Source: a candidate division WOR-3 bacterium (GTDB lineage: Bacteria > Hydrothermota > Hydrothermia > B15-G9 > WFZT01). From it: DNA of 14,367 bases. The notes beneath the pieces are model-generated. The model searched no databases, was not told the origin of the DNA, and worked only from the letters and a program-made list of their open reading frames with translations. The DNA lies in assembly GCA_027053075.1 (NCBI GenBank), contig JALUEE010000050.1, positions 1 to 14,367 of the forward strand. The letters are read 5' to 3'. This document shows positions 1-14,367 of the stretch, one piece after another. Made by a program: the position numbers and the translations under genes. The first letter of the stretch is position 1. Each line of letters begins with the position of its first letter.

Positions 1-47
1 ACCTTGAGTTTGAAGGCTTCGGTATAATGTTTGTTGTTATCAGGCAT
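1..47 (-). CDS. N-terminus (runs off window) of a probable transposase/OrfA-type HTH protein, IS3/IS481-like
   Basis: Minus-strand ATG at 47, preceded by strong SD GAAAGGAGGT (55-64). Translates MPDNNKHYTEAFKLK(V), resembling the 'Y(S/T)xEFKLxxV' start of IS HTH proteins. Only ~15 codons visible. Confidence 0.5.
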   Translation of the reverse strand, partial: MPDNNKHYTEAFKLK

Positions 48-123
48 ATAAGTGACCTCCTTTCAGGGTTTTATAATCATCCACGTGGGGAGTTGTACTG
101 TAAACATATATCAGGACGGGACA
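1..123 (-). mobile_element. Probable left end of an IS3/IS481-like insertion sequence
   Basis: Minus strand begins TGTCCCGTCCTGATATATGTTTACA at 123 (5'-TG/TGT terminus), 76 nt upstream of the transposase-like start. The other end is outside the window. Confidence 0.4.
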
Positions 124-2763: not shown

Positions 2764-2826
2764 AAAATCGTGTTACTCAATCTTGGTCCCGTATCAAAAA
2801 TTTCAAGATGTTGCCCCTTACCTTTA

Positions 2827-2861
2827 TCCTCTCCCCGCAAGGAATTTATGCGGGGAGAGGA
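2827..2861. repeat. REP-like palindrome; possible terminator for the glnA transcript
   Basis: TCCTCTCCCCGCA-9nt-TGCGGGGAGAGGA, 13-bp stem. Near-identical copy at 11953-11986. Confidence 0.7.
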
Positions 2862-3203
2862 AGTTTCATTGGGACCACACATATCTTCTGTGTATAAAAT
2901 GAATCAAAAATTATCCCTGCTGAGTTTGCAGGCATAAAAATTGAAAAAATTACCCCCTTTTCCCCACAAGTATTACTGCGAGGGAGAGGACTTTTTAAAT
3001 GCGGATTCAAACTACTGTCTAAGCTTGTAGGAAATAAATATTTTATTCCTCTGAACTCTACGAATTGCCATCCACATGATTATTTCTCCATTCTCGCGGG
3101 CCAAACTTTATAGACCGAGTCTTTTGAAAATTTTCCAAAAGTCCTGCTTGCGCAACTTAACATAAAAAACTAATTACAAGAAATCTTAAGTCGGTGGAAA
3201 CTT

Positions 3204-3241
3204 TCCCTACCCCACGCAAAGCGCGGGGGAGGGTGACGGGT
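3204..3241. repeat. REP-like palindrome that is the target of MITE copy A
   Basis: CCCTACCCCACGC-AAA-GCGCGGGGGAGGG. Its tail resumes after the MITE (GGGGGTATTCCGCTTGAAA), matching the uninterrupted copy at 11429-11503. Confidence 0.7.
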
Positions 3242-3457
3242 CTGACGTCACCCACGAATTTCTGGAAAATAACACCTCATCCCTTACCACGACTACAAAA
3301 AGGTGTACTACGCTCAATATTTGAACACTCTCTTTATACGGTATAAACGAATATATCCTTCCGGTAAAAGTTGTTGATTTAGTGCGAAAAATTGAATTTC
3401 CCGCCCAGATTGCGTTGTATAAATATACATGAAAAGCAAAAACATGGGTGATGTCAG
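3242..3457 (+). mobile_element. MITE copy A (216 bp, non-autonomous)
   Basis: Terminal inverted repeats CTGACGTCACCCACG / CATGGGTGATGTCAG. 10-bp direct repeat GGTGACGGGT at 3232-3241 and 3458-3467. Reverse complement of 13976-14191 with 2 mismatches by manual comparison. Confidence 0.92.
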
Positions 3458-3706
3458 GGTGACGGGTGGGGGTATTCCGCTTGAAATTTTAGAAGATTCA
3501 ATACATAAAACTTTTCATCGCAAGTATTTCTGCTCGGGAGAAGAAGATTTGGAAGAGATATTTGGCTCTAAGAAATCCTCACATAAATCTTCCCCTTTGA
3601 GCCAATTTTCACCAGTTTCAACGAGTTACTCCAATAAATCCCGTGATTTTGAGAATTAGTATCATTTAAAAATAGGATTTTAGTCTAATTGTTTTTTATA
3701 AAATAT

Positions 3707-3735
3707 TTGACATTATTAATTTAATTACTTAAAAT
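3707..3735 (+). promoter_or_regulatory. Sigma70-type promoter of the arsR-psr operon (likely leaderless or near-leaderless mRNA)
   Basis: TTGACA (3707-3712), 17 nt spacer, TAAAAT (3730-3735). ATG is 9 nt after the -10 element and has no SD. Confidence 0.75.
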
Positions 3736-3744
3736 TTTTGTACT

Positions 3745-4083
3745 ATGGATAAAGAGACTTATCTCAACGAATTGACACACCTACAGGCGGAATTGTGCAA
3801 GGCATTCGTTAACCCTGTGAGAATTGCCATTATAAAGGTTTTATCTGATGGAGAGGAATCAGTTTCTGAGATAGCCTCAAAAGTGGGTGTTCCCATCCAG
3901 AATATTTCACAACACGTGAAGATCCTAAAAGATGCAGGAATTGTCGGGATGAGGCGTGATGGCCACAAAATTTACTATTCACTTGAAGACAAAAGAATTG
4001 TGGAAATCTGCGACTTGATGAAAGATATCCTCATCGAAATTATGAGGAAGAAAGCCAGTATCTTTCATAAGAATATTGAATAG
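3745..4083 (+). CDS. ArsR/SmtB family transcriptional regulator
   Basis: KAFVNPVRIAII..L..GE.SVSEIA..VG....NISQHVKILKDAGIV..RRDG..IYYSL winged-HTH pattern. Two Cys, C18 and C89. Confidence 0.92.
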   Translation: MDKETYLNELTHLQAELCKAFVNPVRIAIIKVLSDGEESVSEIASKVGVPIQNISQHVKILKDAGIVGMRRDGHKIYYSLEDKRIVEICDLMKDILIEIMRKKASIFHKNIE

Positions 4084-4094
4084 GAGGTTTTTTT

Positions 4095-6446
4095 ATGAGT
4101 AATGGGAGGTTAACTCGTAGACAATTTTTGAAAGGAACTGCCCTTGTGGCAGGTACGACCATCCTCCCTACCGGTCTCGTGAGGGCACAGCGCCGGCCCA
4201 CTACCTGGCACGGCAGGGAGCGTGTAACGGAAATTCCCTCTACCTGTGAGATGTGCTTCTGGAGATGTGGAATAATCGGTGAAGTGAAAGATGGAAGACT
4301 GGTGAAGATCAAAGGAAATCCACTTCATCCAAACAACCGTGGAAAAATATGCGCACGTGGTAACGCGGGGCTCAAGACTCTCTACGATCCAGATAGATTG
4401 AAATACCCGCTCATGAGAGTGGGGAAACGCGGTGAAGCCAAGTGGAGAAGGGTTTCATGGAATGAAGCGCTCGATTACATGGTCGATAAACTGAAAAACA
4501 TAAAATCCAAATACGGGCCCGAGGCAATTGCCATGTTCCCCCACGGAGTTTCGTCAAGGCTGCTGAAATCCGTATTTGCCAGCTGGGGAGTTGTTAACTT
4601 TGCCGTTGCATCCTTCAACCACTGTAAAGGGCCAAGAGACGTGGGATTTAAGCTCACTTTTGGCACATCACCTGGCTCTCCTGAACGGCTTGACCTACCC
4701 AATGCGAGCATGATTGTGCTTATAGGCTCACATCTTGGTGAAAATATTCACACAGGGCAGGTGAGAGAATTTGCCGAAGCTATTGGAAGAGGTGCAAAGA
4801 TTGTTGTTGTAGACCCCAGATTCTCCACAGCCGCATCCAAGGCACACTGGTGGCTACCAATAAGGCCAGGGTCTGATATTGCTTTGCTTCTTGCCTGGAT
4901 TAACGTTCTCATTGAAAAAGACCTCTACGATAAAGAATTCGTCAACCGATATACATACGGATTTGAGGAACTTAAAAAGGCAATAAAGCCTTACACGCCG
5001 GAATGGGCAGAAAAAGTCACAGACATCCCGGCCTCAACCATCAGAGAAATCGCTGTTGAGATGGGAATTAGGAAACCGTCTGTCCTTGTCCATCCCGGAC
5101 GACATACGGTGTGGTACGGAAACGATGTTCAGAGATCAAGAGCGATAGCTATTCTGGTTGCACTCCTTGGTTCATGGGGAAAGCCGGGAGGCTATTTTCT
5201 CCCGACCCCTCTTAAAAAATCCAAATGTCCATGCCCTAAACAGGAGAAACCGCCAAAGGATGTTTGTGAGGCCAGTGGCAAAGACATTTATCCATTTCAC
5301 GAGGAAGGTGTGCCATCACAATGTGTGGTAGATGCTACACTAACAGGCAAACCCTATCCGATAAAGGCCTGGATCACCTATGGAACAAACATAATTCAAT
5401 CCATTCCACAGCCCGAGAGGACTATTAAAGCAATTGAAAAACTCGATCTGCTCGTTGCCATCGATATTCTGCCGACCGACCCCTCACTCTACGCCGATGT
5501 TATTCTCCCAGAGGCGACATACCTTGAAAGATATGACCTGCCTTTTGTCGTTTCCAACTGGACTGACCCTTATGTAGCAATTCGTCAGCCTGTTGTAAAA
5601 CCACTATTCCAGTCAAAAGGACCTTTCTGGATTGCCAAAGAAGTATCTAAACGCCTTGGACTCAAAAACTGCTTACCATGCAACAGCGAAGAGGAGATGA
5701 TCGACAAAATCCTTGAACCCTTAAACATTTCACTTGGGGATTTGACCAACAAAGGAGTCCTGAGTTTCCCCGGCAGGCCATATGACACAAGGAATCTCAG
5801 ATTTAGAACCCCAACAGGCAAGATTGAGCTTTATTCAACGAAGCTCGCTGCCAAAGGCTTTAGTCCGATTCCAGTCTTCGAACCAGTTGATGAGCCACCT
5901 AAGGGTTATTTCAGGCTCATTTACGGCCGCTCCCCTGTTCATTCATTCACGAGGACTGTGAATAATGAGTGGCTGGATGAAATTTACCCTGAGAACAGGG
6001 TGTGGCTCAACGAAAAGGCAGCAGAAAAAATGGGCATCAAGGATGGAGACGAGGTCTATCTCGTTAATCAGGACGGTGTCAAAGAAGGTCCGGTAAAGGT
6101 TTTCGTAACACCGGGTATCAGAGATGACTGCGTTTTCATTGTCCACGGATTCGGACAGAAAAATCCCATGATGAGGAGAGCTTACAACAAAGGTATTTCG
6201 GACTCCTTCTTGATGACAAGAATCAAGCCTGATCCAATCGCAGGCTCTACGGGAATGAGGGTGAATTTCGTGAAGATCGAAAAGAATGGCAAGCTCCTTG
6301 AATACACGCCCGAGGGATACGAAGAGCGTCTAAAAGAAATGAAAGCGGCCCATGTGACTCCGACCATAAAGATTCAGAAACCCGCGAATGTCCAGCCCGA
6401 GCAACCTCAGCCACAGGAAGAGGAAGAAGAAGAGGAAGGATGCTAA
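4095..6446 (+). CDS. psrA: Polysulfide/thiosulfate reductase catalytic subunit (PsrA/PhsA-type Mo/W-bisPGD enzyme), Tat-exported
   Basis: Tat motif TRRQFLK; FS0 motif CEMCFWRC-x27-C; YDPDRLKYP; candidate Mo-ligand Cys in SFNHCKGP; HPGRHTVWYG resembles Thermus PsrA; ADVILPEATYLER; SD AGGAGGT. Confidence 0.85.
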   Translation: MSNGRLTRRQFLKGTALVAGTTILPTGLVRAQRRPTTWHGRERVTEIPSTCEMCFWRCGIIGEVKDGRLVKIKGNPLHPNNRGKICARGNAGLKTLYDPDRLKYPLMRVGKRGEAKWRRVSWNEALDYMVDKLKNIKSKYGPEAIAMFPHGVSSRLLKSVFASWGVVNFAVASFNHCKGPRDVGFKLTFGTSPGSPERLDLPNASMIVLIGSHLGENIHTGQVREFAEAIGRGAKIVVVDPRFSTAASKAHWWLPIRPGSDIALLLAWINVLIEKDLYDKEFVNRYTYGFEELKKAIKPYTPEWAEKVTDIPASTIREIAVEMGIRKPSVLVHPGRHTVWYGNDVQRSRAIAILVALLGSWGKPGGYFLPTPLKKSKCPCPKQEKPPKDVCEASGKDIYPFHEEGVPSQCVVDATLTGKPYPIKAWITYGTNIIQSIPQPERTIKAIEKLDLLVAIDILPTDPSLYADVILPEATYLERYDLPFVVSNWTDPYVAIRQPVVKPLFQSKGPFWIAKEVSKRLGLKNCLPCNSEEEMIDKILEPLNISLGDLTNKGVLSFPGRPYDTRNLRFRTPTGKIELYSTKLAAKGFSPIPVFEPVDEPPKGYFRLIYGRSPVHSFTRTVNNEWLDEIYPENRVWLNEKAAEKMGIKDGDEVYLVNQDGVKEGPVKVFVTPGIRDDCVFIVHGFGQKNPMMRRAYNKGISDSFLMTRIKPDPIAGSTGMRVNFVKIEKNGKLLEYTPEGYEERLKEMKAAHVTPTIKIQKPANVQPEQPQPQEEEEEEEGC

Positions 6447-6459
6447 GGAGGATTAGGAA

Positions 6460-7200
6460 ATGACAAAATATGCAATGGTCATAAACGTTGAGAAATGTGT
6501 TGGATGCCATGCCTGTGAACTCGCCTGTAAGGCAGAGTGGGGAGTGGCTGAAAACGAACACAGAACCTGGGTAAAGCCAACCTATCCCCAGTCCCTTGGA
6601 GGAAAAGGATTATTTGATTTAGTCGCTGCTTTTTATGTGGGTCAATGCAATCATTGTGACCATCCTACATGCGTGGAAGCGTGCCCCACTGGGGCAACTT
6701 TTAAACGAGAAGACGGAATCGTGGTAGTCGATTACGACCTTTGCATAGGCTGCGGTTACTGCGTGGAGGCATGCCCCTATGGTGCACGTTACATTCATCC
6801 TACTCTCAAAAAAGTGGATAAATGTGACTTCTGCGCACCAAGACTTGAAAAGGGCCTCGAGCCTGCATGTGTCGAGACCTGTATAACTGGTGCCAAGGTC
6901 TTTGGTGACCTCGAAGACCCCACAAGTGAAGTTTACAAGCTGGTTTATGAGGAGGGTGCGCGCGGTATAACTTCAGAAGAGGTTAATATTGGCCCCAACG
7001 TCTATTACATCGGAGACGAGAAAAAAGTTGACCTGATAATCAATAAGTTCCCGCCGAGAAAGCCCAAGCTGCCAACACCTGCTTCAATATGGGAAAAGCT
7101 CTTGAAACCTCTACTTGGACTCGGAGTGGTAGCCTCCTTCCTTGGAGCATCAGTTGCCTACTTCATCCAGCTTTTCAAAGGTGAAGATAAATTTGAATAA
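6460..7200 (+). CDS. psrB: 4x[4Fe-4S] electron-transfer subunit (PsrB/PhsB/NrfC-like) with C-terminal TM helix
   Basis: CVGCHACELAC, CNHCDHPTCVEACP, CIGCGYCVEACP, CDFC..ACVETC. Hydrophobic C-terminus LLGLGVVASFLGASVAYFI. Confidence 0.88.
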   Translation: MTKYAMVINVEKCVGCHACELACKAEWGVAENEHRTWVKPTYPQSLGGKGLFDLVAAFYVGQCNHCDHPTCVEACPTGATFKREDGIVVVDYDLCIGCGYCVEACPYGARYIHPTLKKVDKCDFCAPRLEKGLEPACVETCITGAKVFGDLEDPTSEVYKLVYEEGARGITSEEVNIGPNVYYIGDEKKVDLIINKFPPRKPKLPTPASIWEKLLKPLLGLGVVASFLGASVAYFIQLFKGEDKFE

Positions 7201-7215
7201 AAGGAGTGGAGAAAA

Positions 7216-7986
7216 ATGAGAAAAGAAATCCTTGAAAAATTCTTACCGTTAACATTTGAGGAGAGGGAAGAGCTCAAGAAAAAGAAGATCAAAAAGCACG
7301 ATATCGCCACCATTTATCTCCACTGGTTCAATGCCACAGTATGGTTTATCGAGCTTATAACGGGCTCAGCCCTCATCATTTCAAAATACTACAAGTTCAC
7401 CCCCCACTTCTGGCAAAAATTGTGGATGGAGATCTTTGGCACGCGGGCAAATATGCTGAAATTCCACATCTTCACAGGAGTTCTATGGATAATCGTCCTC
7501 CTTATCTACGCAGTTTTTGGCTACAAAAATTATCTCTGGGGCTACTTCAAAAACATGCTACTCCTCACTAAAGATGACATCCTGTGGGTTTACTACAAAG
7601 GCATGCAGATACTCGGCAAAAAGGTTCAGCTTCCTCCTCAGGGAATTTATAACGGTGGTCAAAAGCTCTACGCGTGGGATGTTGCCATTGGCACAATTCT
7701 TATAGCCATTACTGGTCCCATTATGGCATTTCACCTTGGAAGTGTCACTCTCGTTAGATGGGCAATAGCTGTCCACTTCCTCGCAGTTGGGCTTGTTCTC
7801 ATGGGACTTTTCGTTCACATCTACATGGCAGCCTTCATGCCCGAGGAACGCCAGTCCTTCTTCTCCATGTTCACCGGGTATGTAAACGAGCTCTATGCCT
7901 ACGAACACCACTACAAGTGGTGGAGAGAGATGGTCAAAGAGCGTGAAAAATGGCTCGAAGAGTATAAGAAAGAGATTGAAAAATAA
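7216..7986 (+). CDS. Diheme cytochrome b membrane anchor (FdnI/PhsC-like)
   Basis: Four TM segments with His in YLHWFNA, KFHIFTG, AVHFL and FVHIY. 'PPQGIYNGGQK' and 'SMFTGYV...A.EHH..W' resemble FdnI. Confidence 0.85.
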   Translation: MRKEILEKFLPLTFEEREELKKKKIKKHDIATIYLHWFNATVWFIELITGSALIISKYYKFTPHFWQKLWMEIFGTRANMLKFHIFTGVLWIIVLLIYAVFGYKNYLWGYFKNMLLLTKDDILWVYYKGMQILGKKVQLPPQGIYNGGQKLYAWDVAIGTILIAITGPIMAFHLGSVTLVRWAIAVHFLAVGLVLMGLFVHIYMAAFMPEERQSFFSMFTGYVNELYAYEHHYKWWREMVKEREKWLEEYKKEIEK

Positions 7987-8021
7987 CTTCAAGAGGCATG
8001 AATTTGCCTGGAGGTGATAAT

Positions 8022-8567
8022 ATGAAATGGAAACTGTCTCTCCTTCTCCTCCTCATAGGTGGTGTGGCATTTGCCGGCTATTCTGAGTTTTACAGAAATG
8101 CCGGTGATTTTCTCAACACCATCGGAGGAAATTTCAAATACGAGGTAACTCCAACAGGGCTGAAAGCGATGCTCGCAAGCGGCTCGAACGGTATCCTCAT
8201 TATCGATCTGAGACCTGCATCGCAGTACAAAAAAGGGCACATACCGGGAGCGATAAATATTCCTTACCGTGAACTCTTTTCACCCCAGTACATAAACAAC
8301 CTGCCGAAGGACAAGAAGATCATCATTTACTGCCCCGACGAATCCATATCACCCTACATCCTGGCCCTGCTAAGGGCAGCCGGATACGATGCCTGGCAGC
8401 TCAAGGGAGGCTACAGGGCCTGGCTGCATGGTGGTGCAGTAGCAAAAGCACCTGCCGCACCACCTCAAATCAAGAAGACAGAGAGGAAACAACCTGTAAA
8501 GGTACAGGTGCAGCAGCCGGAAGAAGAACCCGAAGATGAGGGAGAAGGAGAGGAAGAGGGCTGTTAA
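8022..8567 (+). CDS. Exported single-domain rhodanese with acidic EEEGC tail
   Basis: IIDLR...Y.KGHIPGAINIP, IIIYC, LKGGY.AW. Signal peptide MKWKLSLLLLLIGGVAFA. Start set at 8022 after SD GGAGGT. Confidence 0.88.
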   Translation: MKWKLSLLLLLIGGVAFAGYSEFYRNAGDFLNTIGGNFKYEVTPTGLKAMLASGSNGILIIDLRPASQYKKGHIPGAINIPYRELFSPQYINNLPKDKKIIIYCPDESISPYILALLRAAGYDAWQLKGGYRAWLHGGAVAKAPAAPPQIKKTERKQPVKVQVQQPEEEPEDEGEGEEEGC

Positions 8568-8581
8568 AAGGAGGTAAAACC

Positions 8582-9526
8582 ATGCGTAAGCTAAAATATG
8601 TAGCGTTGATTGGTGTTTTCATGGTCGTGTCTCTTGTTAGGGCACAGACCATACCACCAACCCATATAGTCACCACCGAATGGCTCGCAAAGTACATCAA
8701 CAACCCCAACATCGTGCTAATTGATGTTCGCTCGCAGTCAAGGTATCTCAGGGGTCATCTGCCCGGTGCCGTGAATATTGACTGGAAAGACTTCACAGAT
8801 GATAGAAATGGTATTCCAAGATTCCTGCCCACTCCAGCGAGATTTGAGGAGCTAATGCGTTATGCGGGAGTGAATAACAATTCAATTGTGATTGTTTACG
8901 CCAGCACAAAAGGAACACCAAAGCGGGCAAACGACGCCTCACGCGTTCTCTGGACCATGTACTACTTTGGTATGGACAACATTGCCATTCTTGATGGTGG
9001 AATCACAAAGTGGCTTGACGAGGGACGTCCCATCGAGAAAGGACTTGTAATGAAGAAGAGAGGCACATTCAAAATCACAAAGGTAAGAAGAAACGTCCTA
9101 ACAGTATTCGATGACATACTCGTTGCAAGATACACGGGGCTTCAAATCGTTGATATTCGTCCACCCTGGATGTATATGGGAGAAACAAAAGATGCAAAAG
9201 CTGCAAGGTACGGGCATATTCCCGGTGCTTACAACTACTTTATCGGCAAGATATACAGGAAAGTTGGACATGCCTACTGCTTCCCGACAAAAGATGCGGC
9301 CCTGAAGCTTGCCCAGAAGGTTGGTCTGGACCTCAATAAGCCTATGGCAGTTTACTGTAATGCAGGCCACTGCGGGGCAGGTGGATGGATTATCCTGAAG
9401 TTTATTGCAGGTGCGAAAGACGTTTCGGTTTATGACGGCTCACTCTATGAATACACGAGGATGCCCGTAAATATGAAGCTTGGACCTGCAAGAGGAACAC
9501 TCTGGGAGATTGATAGATTGAAATAA
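8582..9526 (+). CDS. Exported tandem-domain rhodanese/sulfurtransferase (SseA/YnjE-like)
   Basis: IVTTEWL, LIDVR, GHLPGAVNIDW, ILDGG..KW, GHIPGA, active-site VYCNAGHC, VYDGSL.EY. Signal peptide ending VRA. Confidence 0.9.
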   Translation: MRKLKYVALIGVFMVVSLVRAQTIPPTHIVTTEWLAKYINNPNIVLIDVRSQSRYLRGHLPGAVNIDWKDFTDDRNGIPRFLPTPARFEELMRYAGVNNNSIVIVYASTKGTPKRANDASRVLWTMYYFGMDNIAILDGGITKWLDEGRPIEKGLVMKKRGTFKITKVRRNVLTVFDDILVARYTGLQIVDIRPPWMYMGETKDAKAARYGHIPGAYNYFIGKIYRKVGHAYCFPTKDAALKLAQKVGLDLNKPMAVYCNAGHCGAGGWIILKFIAGAKDVSVYDGSLYEYTRMPVNMKLGPARGTLWEIDRLK

Positions 9527-9533
9527 AAGGCCA

Positions 9534-9578
9534 GGGTGGGAGGGGGCTTCGCCCAAAGGGCGAAGCCCCCTCCCACCC
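9534..9578. other. Perfect 21-bp intergenic hairpin (3-nt loop)
   Basis: GGGTGGGAGGGGGCTTCGCCC-AAA-GGGCGAAGCCCCCTCCCACCC. No U-tract; followed by the SD of the next gene. Confidence 0.85.
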
Positions 9579-9607
9579 CGAGAAACCTTTAAAAGGAGGT
9601 AAAAGCC

Positions 9608-10048
9608 ATGAGGTTACACAACAAACTAATTGCAATAGCAATGCTGGGATTCCTTGTGACCGGCCTTAACGCACAGGTGAAATCTCCAAAGAAGCTCGCA
9701 GAAGAGTACTGGCCATCTGTCCACTGGGTGACTCCACAGCAAGCCTACAAGATGATGAAGACCACCCCAAACCTGGTGGTGATCGATATAAGAGAGAGTG
9801 GTGAATACATGCTCGGTCACCTACCAGGCGCCATATTCATTCCACGTGGATTTCTCGAATTCAGGATCGGATTCATTACCAAGGACGCAAATAGGCCGAT
9901 AATTGTGTACTGCCGTAGTGGTCACAGAGCAACTTTCGCGTACGAGCAACTGGTAAGAATGGGCTATAAAAAGGTCTACAACTTGAAGGGTGGGTTCCTG
10001 GGCTGGAAGAAGGCCGGACTGCCCATAAGCAGAAAGCCCAACGGCTGA
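9608..10048 (+). CDS. Exported single-domain rhodanese (PspE/Sud-like)
   Basis: VIDIRE..EY..GHLPGA, VYCRSGHRA, VYNLKGGF.GW...GLP. Signal peptide ending LNA. SD AAGGAGGT. Confidence 0.92.
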   Translation: MRLHNKLIAIAMLGFLVTGLNAQVKSPKKLAEEYWPSVHWVTPQQAYKMMKTTPNLVVIDIRESGEYMLGHLPGAIFIPRGFLEFRIGFITKDANRPIIVYCRSGHRATFAYEQLVRMGYKKVYNLKGGFLGWKKAGLPISRKPNG

Positions 10049-10054
10049 ATTGGA

Positions 10055-10099
10055 GTTGGGGGTGGGGTGGGCGCCGAAGGCGCCCACCCCACCCCCAAC
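10055..10099. other. Perfect 21-bp intergenic hairpin (3-nt loop)
   Basis: GTTGGGGGTGGGGTGGGCGCC-GAA-GGCGCCCACCCCACCCCCAAC. No U-tract. Confidence 0.85.
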
Positions 10100-10120
10100 C
10101 ACGGAAAGGAGGTTATTCCT

Positions 10121-10636
10121 ATGTTCGATGAAGAAAAAAATCTGAATCCTTACATCGGAGGACTTTTGCTTGGCCTCGTTTTACTCGTTACTTTCGTCAT
10201 TTTTGGCCGTGGTCTCGGCGCTTCCGGGGCCGTGGATAGATTCTCCGCATTTATCATCAGTATTTTCGCTCCTAATTGGATTAAGGCCCATCCATACTGG
10301 CATAAATACTATGTTCATGGCCACACACCGCTAAATAACTTTCTCGTATTTCTCCTGATCGGTGTTTTCTTTGGAGGGCTCGTCACAGCCTATTTTCAGG
10401 GCAAGCTAAAGATAAAAGTTCAGCACGGTCCAAGAATTTCCAAAACTCAGAGGTATGTTATCGCATTCATAGGCGGAATGATTCTTGCTATAGCTACAAG
10501 GTTCTCCCGCGGCTGTACCAGCGGTCAGGCATTGACAGGTGGTGCTGAGCTTGCCGTTGGCAGCTGGATTTTCATGATTGCATTTTTCATTTCGGGACCC
10601 ATTACAGCTCTCTTTATTAAAAAATTCTGGAGGTAG
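10121..10636 (+). CDS. YeeE/YedE family sulfur transporter component (first)
   Basis: NPYIGG, GLGASG, 'R...GCTSGQALTG' Cys motif, multiple TMs. Start placed at ATG 10121 after SD AAGGAGG, not GTG 10067. Confidence 0.88.
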   Translation: MFDEEKNLNPYIGGLLLGLVLLVTFVIFGRGLGASGAVDRFSAFIISIFAPNWIKAHPYWHKYYVHGHTPLNNFLVFLLIGVFFGGLVTAYFQGKLKIKVQHGPRISKTQRYVIAFIGGMILAIATRFSRGCTSGQALTGGAELAVGSWIFMIAFFISGPITALFIKKFWR

Positions 10637-10641
10637 AAGAA

Positions 10642-11223
10642 ATGGCACCAATTCTAAAATTTTATCACGTACCGTTTTTCTGGTATTTTGTTCTGACCCT
10701 CATAACAGGCTTCTTTTTCGGGATTACCCTCGCAATTTCAGGATTCTACGACACTAAAAAACTCACCGGAGTGTTCTTTTTTGATGACATGGCCGTTCTC
10801 AAAGTCATGTTCTCTGCCATTGTAGTCGCAAGTATAGGCCTCTACCTTCTCGTGGACCTCGGAACACTTGATTTAACAAGGCTTTACATTCCCAAAACAT
10901 ACTGGATTTCGCAGCTTGTAGGAGGCTTGCTATTTGGTATTGGGTTTATGCTTTCCGGATACTGTCCGGGAACAAGCTTTGTATCCCTTGCCTATGGCAG
11001 TATAGATGCACTTTTCGTAATCCTTGGGATGATCTTTGGGATGTGGGTGTTTGGATTTGGATACAAACTCTGGAAGGGGCTTTATCTGGCTGGCTATCTT
11101 GGGAGAATTACCCTTGATAGATTGTTTGGAATGAACCGATGGATTATCATCGGGGCTGTGTTTGTTATCGCAGTCTTCGCTTTTATCCAGATTGAAATTT
11201 TTGAGCAAAAGAAGAAATCCTGA
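10642..11223 (+). CDS. YeeE/YedE family sulfur transporter component (second)
   Basis: G..FG..L..SG, 'VLKVMFSAI', 'GGLLFGIGF.LSGYCPGT' Cys motif, multiple TMs. Confidence 0.88.
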   Translation: MAPILKFYHVPFFWYFVLTLITGFFFGITLAISGFYDTKKLTGVFFFDDMAVLKVMFSAIVVASIGLYLLVDLGTLDLTRLYIPKTYWISQLVGGLLFGIGFMLSGYCPGTSFVSLAYGSIDALFVILGMIFGMWVFGFGYKLWKGLYLAGYLGRITLDRLFGMNRWIIIGAVFVIAVFAFIQIEIFEQKKKS

Positions 11224-11234
11224 GAGGAAAATGC

Positions 11235-11262
11235 AGGAGGGGCCCGCCGATGGGCCTCCCTT
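11235..11262 (+). terminator. Possible weak terminator hairpin after the operon
   Basis: AGGAGGGGCCC-GCCGAT-GGGCCTCCCTT, an imperfect stem 11 nt after the stop. Poor U-tract. Confidence 0.35.
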
Positions 11263-11428
11263 GAACTTTCAACATGAACAACAAAAATCCGAATTTTACC
11301 GGGCAATGAGAGCCTGTTCAAAAATGGAGGCCTCCTTCTTAAACCGGAAAGTACGTCCGAGATTAAATTACGCCTGTGAAAAAATTCATTTTTATAGTCC
11401 ACATTTGCGAAACAACTGGATCTAAATT

Positions 11429-11503
11429 TGCCCTTTCCCACTTGCTTTGCAAGTGGGAAAGGGCATCGGGAGGGGGTATTCCGCTTGAAAATTAGAAATT
11501 CAA
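11429..11503. repeat. REP-like palindrome plus tail (uninterrupted equivalent of the MITE A target)
   Basis: 17-bp stem TGCCCTTTCCCACTTGC-TTT-GCAAGTGGGAAAGGGCA, then GGGGGTATTCCGCTTGAAA shared with 3468-3486. Confidence 0.75.
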
Positions 11504-11610
11504 GATAAAGACTATATGCCGCGCTGAGTTGAAAAGTAAGTTTTATCTGAGCGTGTTCGAAAAATTTCAAAACCTTTGAATTTTAATGAAAAATTTGCCC
11601 CCCACCTTAT

Positions 11611-11652
11611 TCCTCCCCCCACGCACTTCGTGCGTGGGGGGAGGATGGGAGG
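11611..11652. repeat. REP-like palindrome that is the target of MITE copy B
   Basis: 16-bp stem TCCTCCCCCCACGCAC-TTC-GTGCGTGGGGGGAGGA. Confidence 0.8.
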
Positions 11653-11867
11653 CTGATATCACCCATGTTTTTGCTTGTCATGTATACTTATACAATACAA
11701 TCTGGGCGAGAAATTCAATTTTTCGCAGTAAATCAACAATTTTACCTGAAGGATATATTCGTTTATACCGCATAAAGAGAGTGTTCAAATATTGAGCGTA
11801 GTACACCTTTTTGAAGACCTGGCAAGGGATAAGGTGTTATTATCCAGAAATTCGTGGGTGACGTCAG
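11653..11867 (-). mobile_element. MITE copy B (215 bp, diverged)
   Basis: Ends CTGATATCACCCATG / CGTGGGTGACGTCAG. 10-bp direct repeat GGATGGGAGG at 11643-11652 and 11868-11877. About 16 substitutions and 1 deletion versus copy C by manual count. Confidence 0.9.
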
Positions 11868-11952
11868 GGATGGGAGGGGGGAATTTCCGAACAAGCTCAT
11901 TTTATCTTTCAATTTATCCTGGAGATTTGGAATATTTAGCCCTTCTCTTATA

Positions 11953-11986
11953 TCCTTTCCCCGCAGGTATTTATGCGGGGAGAGGA
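11953..11986. repeat. REP-like palindrome
   Basis: TCCTTTCCCCGCA-8nt-TGCGGGGAGAGGA, near-identical to 2827-2861. Confidence 0.7.
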
Positions 11987-12043
11987 ATCGTTCGCGTTTG
12001 GCTGGATTAAATTTCCCTCGTAAAGGGTTTAAACTAATGCCCT

Positions 12044-13831
12044 ATGTGGGCTATTCTCCTCGCAGTTTCTATAATACTCAGTCTGTGGGTCTACAGGGGT
12101 GCATTTAAGCGAGCCTGGTATCTTGTGTTACTACGTACACTATCGCTATTCCTGCTACTTTTGGTAGCCCTCTCCCCCATCTTCCATAGAAAAAAGGTCG
12201 TGCCCACGGAGGTTGATGTCCTTATCGATAAATCGGGAAGCATGGGCTACCCCGATAAGGCCAAATTTCTAAAAGCTACCCTGGAAGACCTTAAAAATCT
12301 CTCATACAGCGGAATTTCTCTGAGTTTTTTCAGTTTTGACACAACTTTTGATCGAGGCATAAATTTGGACTTTGGGGGCAAAACAAACATTGGGCTTGCC
12401 ATAGATTCGGCAAAATCAAGGTTTATTGTGCTCCTCTCAGACGGTTTGAATAATCGGGGAAGTTTTCCGTCCGTTAAGGGCAAGAAAGTATTGGCCTTTC
12501 CTCCACCAACCTCAAAGGCTCTCATAAAGGAATTTTCCTTCAAGCCTGTGATCGTCGAGGGTGTATCAGATACAATAAGGGTAACCTCCGCCGTCACAGG
12601 GAAAATCGAAATTTATGAAGGTGGTAAGGCTATTTATTCCGGGAAGGTAGCAAAAAATAAACCAGCCGAAATTATTTTAAATCTGAAAACCCCAGGATTT
12701 CATACCCTGCAGATGAAGATTAATGGGAAGATCGCCCGAAAATTTACCGTCAGGGTTATCAAAAGGGGGAAGCGTGTCTTGATTTACGCTTCACATCCTG
12801 ACGTGAACATCAGATTCTTGAGGATGTATATCGAATATGCAGGGAACATTTCGCCAGATTTTGTTGTAAAAACAAAAAAAGGTACACGAGAATACAGGCC
12901 AGACACGGTAATAGACCTAAAAAGTTTTGAGCCTTCCGGGTACGATTTCTACATAATGATCGACCCCTCAATTGACATGATTAAGCCCCTGGAACATGGG
13001 GAAAAAGGACTTGTAATCTTCACAAGGACTCCAGTGGTATTGCCCGAGCTACTTGGCGGTCAGTACCTGCCTTCAAAAATGACCGGGGAACTTTATCCAC
13101 ACTGGAGGGACACCATACTTGCCCCGGTAGGCTATATTTGGGTTCTCAATCGCTATCCACCTGAATCAGAGACCCCGGTCTTTATTAAAGTTGCTAATAG
13201 AAACGTGCCACTTTTGTTTCTAACCGGGCGCCTTGCCTTCCTCATGTCTGGAGACTTCTTCAAGGAGGCACTTTTTGACTTTAAAACCTTTTCGAGGATA
13301 CTCGACCTCGTGTTCTCAAGGCTGATCCCTGAAGGTAGCTTTTTTGTTGAAACACCCTCGAGGCAGTTTGAAAAGGGAGAAAAAATCCCTCTGGTAGCAT
13401 ATGCTTTTGATAAGTTTGGCAACGCTGTGGATACTCTATTCCCATTTGTCAAAATCGGGGATAGAAAGTATCCAATGAATTACGTCGGAAATGGAAAGTA
13501 TGTAACTTCGATAGCAGCAAAAGATACTGGAAAGGTCAAGGCAAGTGTAGTTTTTAAAGGCCCCGGGGGATTTGTTAAAGAAGAGAGGATAACCTTTAGG
13601 ATTCGCTCGATCAGCGAGGAGAAACCCACACCAGAGGTTGACCTGGCATTTTTAAGGTCAATTGGAGAAGTCGTGACATCAAAGAAGGCACTTCACCAAT
13701 TCCTGAAATCTATCAAGCCTACCACTGTAAGAGAGAAAATCAATCTCAGGGACTACCTAGCCCTTATCCTGCTTGCATTTGCACTTCTTGGAGTTGAATG
13801 GTTCCTTCGAAGGTCAAACGGGGTTGTGTAA
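12044..13831 (+). CDS. Membrane-anchored vWA-domain protein
   Basis: Two N-terminal hydrophobic segments; MIDAS-like IDKSGSM...TNIG.AI...LLSDG; C-terminal TM ending 'LLGVEWFLRR'. Confidence 0.8.
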   Translation: MWAILLAVSIILSLWVYRGAFKRAWYLVLLRTLSLFLLLLVALSPIFHRKKVVPTEVDVLIDKSGSMGYPDKAKFLKATLEDLKNLSYSGISLSFFSFDTTFDRGINLDFGGKTNIGLAIDSAKSRFIVLLSDGLNNRGSFPSVKGKKVLAFPPPTSKALIKEFSFKPVIVEGVSDTIRVTSAVTGKIEIYEGGKAIYSGKVAKNKPAEIILNLKTPGFHTLQMKINGKIARKFTVRVIKRGKRVLIYASHPDVNIRFLRMYIEYAGNISPDFVVKTKKGTREYRPDTVIDLKSFEPSGYDFYIMIDPSIDMIKPLEHGEKGLVIFTRTPVVLPELLGGQYLPSKMTGELYPHWRDTILAPVGYIWVLNRYPPESETPVFIKVANRNVPLLFLTGRLAFLMSGDFFKEALFDFKTFSRILDLVFSRLIPEGSFFVETPSRQFEKGEKIPLVAYAFDKFGNAVDTLFPFVKIGDRKYPMNYVGNGKYVTSIAAKDTGKVKASVVFKGPGGFVKEERITFRIRSISEEKPTPEVDLAFLRSIGEVVTSKKALHQFLKSIKPTTVREKINLRDYLALILLAFALLGVEWFLRRSNGVV

Positions 13832-13975
13832 TTCTTATATCAATATTGATTGAATATTGACCTTATGAATATCCAGTCAATTACACAAATATTTCCTGTG
13901 AGGAGTTCGCGTTTAAGTTTAATCGAAGGACGATTTAAAATAGTGTTGGAAATATCCCCATTCTCCCCTTAACCC

Positions 13976-14191
13976 CTGACATCACCCATGTTTTTGCTTT
14001 TCATGTATATTTATACAACGCAATCTGGGCGGGAAATTCAATTTTTCGCACTAAATCAACAATTTTTACCGGAAGGATATATTCGTTTATACCGTATAAA
14101 GAGAGTGTTCAAATATTGAGCGTAGTACACCTTTTTGTAGTTGTGGTAAGGGATGAGGTGTTATTTTCCAGAAATTCGTGGGTGACGTCAG
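13976..14191 (-). mobile_element. MITE copy C (216 bp)
   Basis: Ends CTGACATCACCCATG / CGTGGGTGACGTCAG. 10-bp direct repeat CCCTTAACCC at 13966-13975 and 14192-14201. Confidence 0.92.
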
Positions 14192-14367
14192 CCCTTAACC
14201 CCTCCTCCTCCTATAATGTTTGTTGTTATTTATTATGGTGATCACTCACAATATAGAGAAAAACTTTAGAGGAGGTGGAATGAGTGGTTTTTAGATCTTT
14301 CCCCTCCTTGGGGCTTGACCCCGGTAGGAAGATTGGTCCCTCCACCTGGGGTATAAGCCTGGATTGT

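Follow-up and report, generated by a model that had tools for sequence, protein, structure and literature searches.

Why should copies of a short mobile element keep turning up beside palindromic repeats? The question is raised by a 14,367-nucleotide stretch of DNA (the window; positions 1 to 14,367 of contig JALUEE010000050.1, assembly GCA_027053075.1) from a candidate division WOR-3 bacterium, in which three copies of one element, here called A, B and C, lie within 11 kb. A preliminary description of the window had proposed a non-autonomous, possibly IS4-derived element that uses the tails of repetitive extragenic palindromes (REPs) as targets. We followed this up in the source genome (G000; 2.44 Mb, 95% complete) and in 60 relatives. 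The element is an ordinary non-coding MITE (miniature inverted-repeat transposable element). It has its ends, duplication length and target type in common with a resident insertion sequence (IS) of the IS4 family, and the target is a repeat of the BoxC type, entered mainly at one fixed point. The published accounts cited below were available in part, and comparisons with them refer to those parts.

The MITE family

All three copies were found where they had been reported and in both orientations (Table 1), copy B being 215 bp long. Their terminal 15 nt match as inverted repeats at 13/15 positions, and each copy is bounded by an exact 10-bp duplication, different in every case: GGTGACGGGT (A), GGATGGGAGG (B) and CCCTTAACCC (C). 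With copy A as BLAST query, the source genome yielded 23 full copies and 4 more cut by contig ends. Exact 10-bp duplications flanked 17 of the 23 full copies, as opposed to 3 of 506 cross-pairings that served as chance control. Among the other six, one had 10 bp with a mismatch, one 11 bp and two 12 bp, and two were without a clean duplication. This genome-wide tabulation had been suggested in the preliminary description, and neither random targets nor a general lack of duplications was seen. The two copies lacking a clean duplication (C40:294-509 and C47:83865-84079) were left out of the test of insertion position, which covered the remaining 21; BoxC tails were seen by eye in the flanks of both. 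One of the two has flanks from two different repeats, a product of recombination or mis-assembly, and the other carries 5 extra bases repeating its own end ahead of the duplication.

Among the relatives, congener G004 gave 11 MITE matches, with exact 10-bp duplications at 7 of 9 full copies, and congener G001 a single partial end match. Site A is empty in G004, where an intact repeat holds a single copy of the 10-mer, and contigs of the runs X2 and X7 likewise skip the MITE at this position. Conversely, three G004 insertions are empty in G000, and two of these empty sites already carry the repeat. For sites B and C no comparison with G004 was possible, because the intergenic DNA differs there. 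The family is thus short, non-coding and multi-copy, with inverted ends, target duplications and both filled and empty orthologous sites, as expected of a MITE.

Copies A and C, which differ at 2 sites as first described, fall into a group of 10 with at most 2 differences. Copy B had been taken to be older. This was not supported: it lies within 1–3 nt of three other copies in a second group, and since its siblings are so close, both subfamilies must have spread recently. One copy of each subfamily sits in the same IS3 transposase gene (G000 C11:18483-19396), and a G004 copy lies in an element homologous to that IS3 element.

Two further roles of the MITE were considered and set aside. Its folding score (z −2.7) stems from a long helix that is made by the terminal repeats, and therefore no separate RNA role is claimed. 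An outward promoter was unsupported, with 3 promoter-like sites in 3150-3760 and 1.8 expected; the best of these belongs to an ArsR gene, and one weak site (9/12) lies within the MITE. The MITE had no sequence match among plasmids, and a Rfam scan of the window, MITE included, returned no family.

The target repeat

The repeat next to the copies had been called REP-like. That it is a palindromic repeat was borne out, but its type had to be revised. A classical RAYT-associated REP would flank the gene of a cognate Y1 tyrosine transposase; no match to PF01797 (Y1/RAYT) was found in the 95%-complete G000, and the repeats are not classed with these REPs. The repeats instead follow the plan described for BoxC, also named PIT or TM-ECO: a C-rich arm, a loop, a purine arm, a 3–6-nt loop and a mirror purine tail, in intergenic DNA (PMC4666352). 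They do not conform to the exact TM-ECO consensus with its 3–6-nt first loop (PMC4666352). With the MITEs removed, a motif search found 478 such motifs in G000 and 0 in two local shuffles; 452 of the 478 lay outside long open reading frames (ORFs), which make up 83% of the genome. An extra inner stem was present in 294 of 411 hairpins, and in the other 117 the loop was flanked directly by pyrimidine and purine tracts. The pattern is expanded in G000, G004 and G005 and weakly in G001, and not in G002 and G003, where IS ends adjoin shorter C-run/G-run hairpins. Within the window, an uninterrupted equivalent of the repeats was confirmed, although its bounds are narrower than first given (Table 1).

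A DUF559 cassette is present as well. The one DUF559 (YcjD-like) gene of G000 (L047:1250-1910, contig C26) has inverted BoxC-like repeats on both sides, and two more DUF559 genes in relatives (L081, L082) are likewise flanked. In E. coli, a BoxC-like repeat lies at the 3' end of ycjD, and none was seen in 100 nt on the 5' side. Perfect 21-bp hairpins of another kind, with G first, follow gene ends at 9534-9578 and 10055-10099 of the window. They belong to a second family of about 142, which had taken up only two insertions by MITE and IS.

The insertion point

In 14 of the 21 copies with a duplication, the duplication was centred at most 3 nt from the axis of loop 2, which joins the purine arm to the mirror tail, and mostly at most 2 nt from the mirror axis. 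The chance of hitting loop 2 is 0.0014 per site, which gives p ~3e-24 even with only non-coding DNA available. In A and B, as first noted, the start of the duplication lies in the hairpin's 3' arm, 2 nt and 3 nt inside it; insertion into REP tails, as proposed there, could be narrowed to this loop. The remaining seven comprise copy C, one copy that by eye occupies the tip of a BoxC hairpin with a short stem, one in a G-first hairpin, two in the IS3 element and two in no palindrome. Copy C had been placed beside a purine arm on the other strand. This is indeed a minus-strand BoxC-like repeat entered at loop 2; its hairpin seems absent because an IS110-family element begins at 14211, inside the stem, and has moved the other arm away from the vicinity of C. 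Relative to the G-rich strand, 13 copies were in one orientation and 8 in the other. Three of the 21 sites were in long ORFs, two of them in the IS3 element.

The preference was not a general property of mobile DNA in this genome. A G/C tract or hairpin adjoined 39/50 MITE ends and 11/11 ends of the IS4-family element, in contrast to 2/8 IS3 and 1/10 IS630 ends (Fisher p 7e-7, with ends that are not independent). Insertions outside the repeats retained G-tracts, for instance at L011 in coding-type DNA. Both hairpin-tip insertions of G000 fell among the 117 hairpins with a tract-flanked loop and none among the 294 with a mixed inner stem, a weak difference (p ~0.08).

The partner insertion sequence

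The search for a transposase-encoding IS with the same ends, as had been recommended, was successful. It returned 4 left and 7 right ends of an IS4-family element, mostly at contig breaks. One copy could be read as two halves, one on contig C85 and the other on C40, which an IS630 element inserted at a TA has separated; it has the same 10-mer on both flanks and a total length of ~1.19 kb. The IS630 element lies in the IS4 transposase gene (L001:1-146, L002:1028-2115), and past it C40 runs on into unrelated DNA, possibly an assembly join or a recombination. NF033591 (IS4) was the best profile match of both halves and of all 7 transposases scanned, at 92–139 bits for a cut-off of 152. A full-length database protein, P0003, is identical over the N-terminal half and scored 138.8 bits, likewise under the cut-off. 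It contains D89, D153 and E250 (D-64-D-97-E) and a YREK motif. The second spacer of 97 is just below the range D(60-110)D(100-150)E quoted in PMC2266710, and the YREK motif fits the Y(2)R(3)E(6)K given there. A single ORF is indicated by full-length single-ORF relatives, and a duplication of about 10 bp by paired ends with matching 10-mers in G000 and at 3 of 31 other loci. A PDB search gave no useful entry.

Partner IS and MITE have 19/19 bases in common at the right end and 18/20 at the left. Since they share these termini (CTGA..TCACCCA), the 10-bp duplication and the target type, the resident IS4-family transposase likely mobilises the MITE in trans, as judged from sequence. In this respect the proposal that the element is non-autonomous, related to IS4 and directed at palindromic repeats was supported.

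Among annotated plasmid proteins the nearest are IS4 transposases of ~25% identity, one of them from an element with CTGA ends, 1325 bp in length and with a 9-bp duplication. In profile searches the partner transposase fell into a small, compact clade, set off by a gap in score from other IS4 proteins. Matches were found in 4/5 congeners and 0/55 other relatives. An alignment search added 14 genome and 18 metagenome loci, mostly of 42–55% identity (37–82% for the relatives overall), whose titles name Balneolaceae, Chitinophagaceae, Thermoanaerobaculaceae, Hyphomicrobiales and Atribacteria, so that the clade is cross-phylum. Most of the related loci have CTGACAT(T/C)ACCC ends and a length of 1175–1213 bp. 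MITE-like elements of 225–238 bp with the ends of the clade and a different interior were also noticed in three congeners (L105:1501-1738; L087:1501-1727; G003 C295:5076-5300).

The target preference extends to this clade. Scanned with a strict end pattern, 30 of 37 loci gave 49 distinct ends, all outside G000 and G004, and G/C runs made up at least 5 of the adjacent 20 nt at 37 of these 49 ends (control 5.6%). Many of the ends were, by eye, at hairpins of the BoxC type, either at the tip or at the second loop. The same test was passed by 20 of 30 ends in four congeners. The 10-mers at clade ends were of the classes CC..CC (9), GG..GG (8) and CC..GG (8), with 0 of GG..CC.

Proposed mechanism and alternatives

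We consider it rather probable that the transposase selects its targets by reading G-tracts in double-stranded DNA, which the BoxC/triplex-type repeats supply. By analogy with the IS4 family (PMC2266710), a transposase dimer would excise the element by cut-and-paste and join it to the target with a 10-bp stagger. The target classes suggest CCC-N4-GGG, lengthened by G-runs, as the ideal site. One good half-site, with its G-run leading outward from the centre, would be enough if the other half is a G/C tract as well, over some 20 bp overall. The presence of CC..GG, GG..GG and CC..CC and the absence of GG..CC fit such a dimer. BoxC repeats would offer a site of this kind at loop 2, where 3–6 nt separate two G-runs, and at the hairpin tip of variants with a short stem. 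Elements inserted there lie between genes and have an intact hairpin on one side, so that the cost to the host would usually be small.

A different explanation of the fixed position is possible, if doubtful in our view: the same transposase, acting on the same MITE and partner IS, might capture a non-B structure, either a purine-motif intrastrand triplex or a cruciform with its tail, whose exposed or bent loops would be the integration points. The position of the duplications, at loop 2 and mostly within 2 nt of the mirror axis and otherwise at loop 1, is what such a structure predicts; the consensus is moreover mirror-symmetric on one strand, which is unusual for an enzyme of two-fold symmetry, and local 10-mers do not suffice to define the target. 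A single strand of the E. coli motif forms a triplex in vitro, but none was reported for the double-stranded form or in vivo in the available part of that study (PMC4666352). Against folding we further note that the long-stem hairpin tips (294/411) were never hit and that off-repeat sites keep their G-tracts where no third strand is at hand. The use of BoxC-like repeats by the unrelated IS110 element could also speak for a shared structure. IS110 targeting is, however, normally RNA-guided and hence needs none. We think it rather unlikely that, in a wider version, the cross-phylum IS10-like clade and its MITEs recognise the BoxC repeat as a folded triplex and integrate at its loops, the repeats being spread by DUF559 cassettes and serving as a shared landing pad for unrelated transposases. 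If the structure were what is read, insertion sites would be an in vivo footprint of triplex formation.

Two explanations remain. The DUF559 nuclease, as a host or selfish protein able to bind or nick these BoxC repeats, might recruit the transposase or open the DNA. The single DUF559 gene of G000 and two in relatives are indeed bracketed by target repeats, inverted ones in G000, and at locus L052 the IS adjoins a DUF559-like frame (by eye). Such a helper is improbable because no DUF559 was found in 5 congeners (82–96% complete), G004 with its 11 MITE matches included; the constant 10-bp stagger, too, is that of the transposase and not of a separate nick. Near-random insertion, with survival only of copies in harmless intergenic repeats, would be in line with the location of 452/478 motifs outside long ORFs in a genome of which 83% is long ORFs. 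It is very improbable and largely refuted: within the repeat the insertion point varies by only a few bases, the bias is also seen among young copies that are identical, and the IS3 and IS630 elements of this genome, which face the same selection, are unbiased, so that intergenic survival does not explain the pattern.

Several observations weigh against the reading of G-tracts by the partner transposase. Four of the 23 MITE copies lie in no palindrome. Only 5.8% of (G3|C3)N4(G3|C3) sites and 13% of median-score sites of a 10-bp matrix are at the motif; the 10-mer alone is therefore too weak and a longer context is needed, and this same context is also what would form the triplex. A 20-bp matrix placed 200/229 sites in motifs, a circular result as it had been trained on those sites, and mirror-triad counts, circular as well, were not used as evidence. 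Purine mirrors without a hairpin (116/556) are too few to separate the models, and the target classes follow from triplex geometry as well. Among the 31 distant loci, an exact 10-bp duplication with both flanks was seen in only 3, the others having unmatched or missing flanks, and the 37 of 49 clade ends with G/C runs include close kin and both ends of single insertions, which are not independent. As to the partner, the assembly of G000 contains no intact transposase gene, the other copies of the IS having collapsed at contig ends, and G004 (89% complete), which has 11 MITE matches, yielded none either. No match to the MITE interior was seen in the resident IS or at the related loci (best E 0.13). 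The MITE is hence not a simple deletion derivative of that IS, and descent from an unsampled relative is likely; of the proposed IS4 origin, the shared ends stood and the derivation of the interior from the resident IS did not.

Whether the repeat is read as sequence or as structure is open to a simple assay, since the DDE transposase is a single protein whose insertions fall at one loop to within a few bases. BoxC/triplex repeats have had no established function or partner, and transposase insertion offers one cause of the genome variability reported around them. Its compactness and its target preference, ~20 bp and mostly intergenic, may also make such a transposase of interest as an integration tool.

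Other features of the window

Table 1. Positions of the MITE copies, their target duplications and the associated repeats in the window. For MITE copies, + means that the end matching the left (gene-start) end of the partner IS comes first.
Feature	Position	Strand	Remarks
MITE copy A	3242..3457	+	216 bp, 38% GC, longest ORF 43 amino acids
Left target duplication of A	3232..3241	+	GG-TGAC-GGGT, centre is loop 2 of BoxC-like repeat; single copy at empty G004 site
Right target duplication of A	3458..3467	+	followed by remainder of G-rich tail, 3468-3472
BoxC-like hairpin hit by A	3205..3233	+	pyrimidine arm, inner stem, purine arm
MITE copy B	11653..11867	-	215 bp, second subfamily, 92.6% to A, 1–3 nt different from three further copies
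Left target duplication of B	11643..11652	+	GG-ATG-GGAGG, begins 3 nt within hairpin arm
Right target duplication of B	11868..11877	+	
Double-tailed BoxC-like repeat hit by B	11597..11645	+	hairpin 11611-11645, mirror tail on either strand
MITE copy C	13976..14191	-	216 bp, identical to two further genomic copies
Left target duplication of C	13966..13975	+	at loop 2 of BoxC-like repeat on minus strand, with its tail at 13956-13968
Right target duplication of C	14192..14201	+	
IS110-family element, left end	14211..14367	+	inside stem of BoxC-like repeat hit by C; takes other hairpin arm away from C
Uninterrupted BoxC-like repeat	11429..11476	+	free target
Uninterrupted BoxC-like repeat, other subfamily	2815..2862	-	free target

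The window holds parts of two IS110-family copies, the left end listed in Table 1 and a right end at ~124-339. The genome has 14 left and 12 right IS110 ends, of two subtypes with different non-coding leaders. Nearly all of them lie in the pyrimidine arm of BoxC-like repeats at CT, and each subtype uses a different repeat subfamily. The end of an IS3-like element is found at 1-123 (minus strand) within the tail of an IS110 copy; there are 8 such ends in the genome, 2 of them beside BoxC-like hairpins.

Copy A lies ~290 bp upstream of a gene for an ArsR-type regulator. This gene opens the region 3745-11223, in which it is followed by an operon for a TAT-exported (twin-arginine translocation) molybdopterin oxidoreductase, with rhodanese-domain and sulphur-transport genes, likely for polysulfide or thiosulfate respiration.

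Comparison with known systems

The IS10 subgroup is tabulated with 5'-CT ends, a length of 1200–1350 bp and a 9-bp duplication (PMC2266710). The partner IS resembles it in its one ORF, its DDE and YREK motifs, its 5'-CT ends and its ~1.19 kb, and its clade, at 1175–1213 bp, is borderline for the lower size limit. It differs in a duplication of 10 bp instead of 9 (11–12 bp in 3/23 MITE copies) and in its strong repeat targeting, which the main text of PMC2266710, in the part available, does not give for the subgroup. On its sequence we file the partner IS as IS10-like and not as a member of IS10.

The MITE itself is ordinary, and MITEs of such anatomy are common (PMC3184786). Like Nezha and Chunjie it has ~200 bp, inverted repeats, duplications, filled and empty orthologous sites and no transposase (PMC3184786). 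No sequence match to it was found (Rfam, plasmids), and strict homing to one repeat is not described for Nezha and Chunjie in the available part of that paper. What is unusual is the target, which is clade-wide and testable.

The target repeats, like TM-ECO, occur in hundreds of copies, the number of which varies greatly between congeners (PMC4666352). Most of the repeats in the source genome differ from the E. coli motif by an inner stem, and many by tails on both strands. The main study of the motif, as far as available, saw no transposases or other mobile elements near the E. coli repeats and no triplex in vivo (PMC4666352), whereas in the source genome two IS families and a MITE insert into them. 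For E. coli K-12, that study gives 23 TM-ECO motifs. Targeting of BoxC-type repeats was not found in the literature searched, whose coverage left out most subscription papers.

Insertion into palindromic repeats is in itself an established habit. REPs are targeted by ISRm22 (IS4 family, IS4Sa subgroup), by IS1397, ISKpn1 and ISPsy8 (IS3) and by IS621 and ISPpu9/10 (IS110) (PMC1525189), and for the IS4 family such targeting has thus already been published. The elements described here are like ISRm22 in being IS4-family elements that enter an abundant extragenic palindrome at a set position. ISRm22, however, inserts at the palindrome axis with 6-bp repeats, whereas the partner IS uses mainly the junction of stem and mirror tail of a BoxC-type target with 10-bp repeats, and its MITE has the same habit (PMC1525189 for ISRm22).

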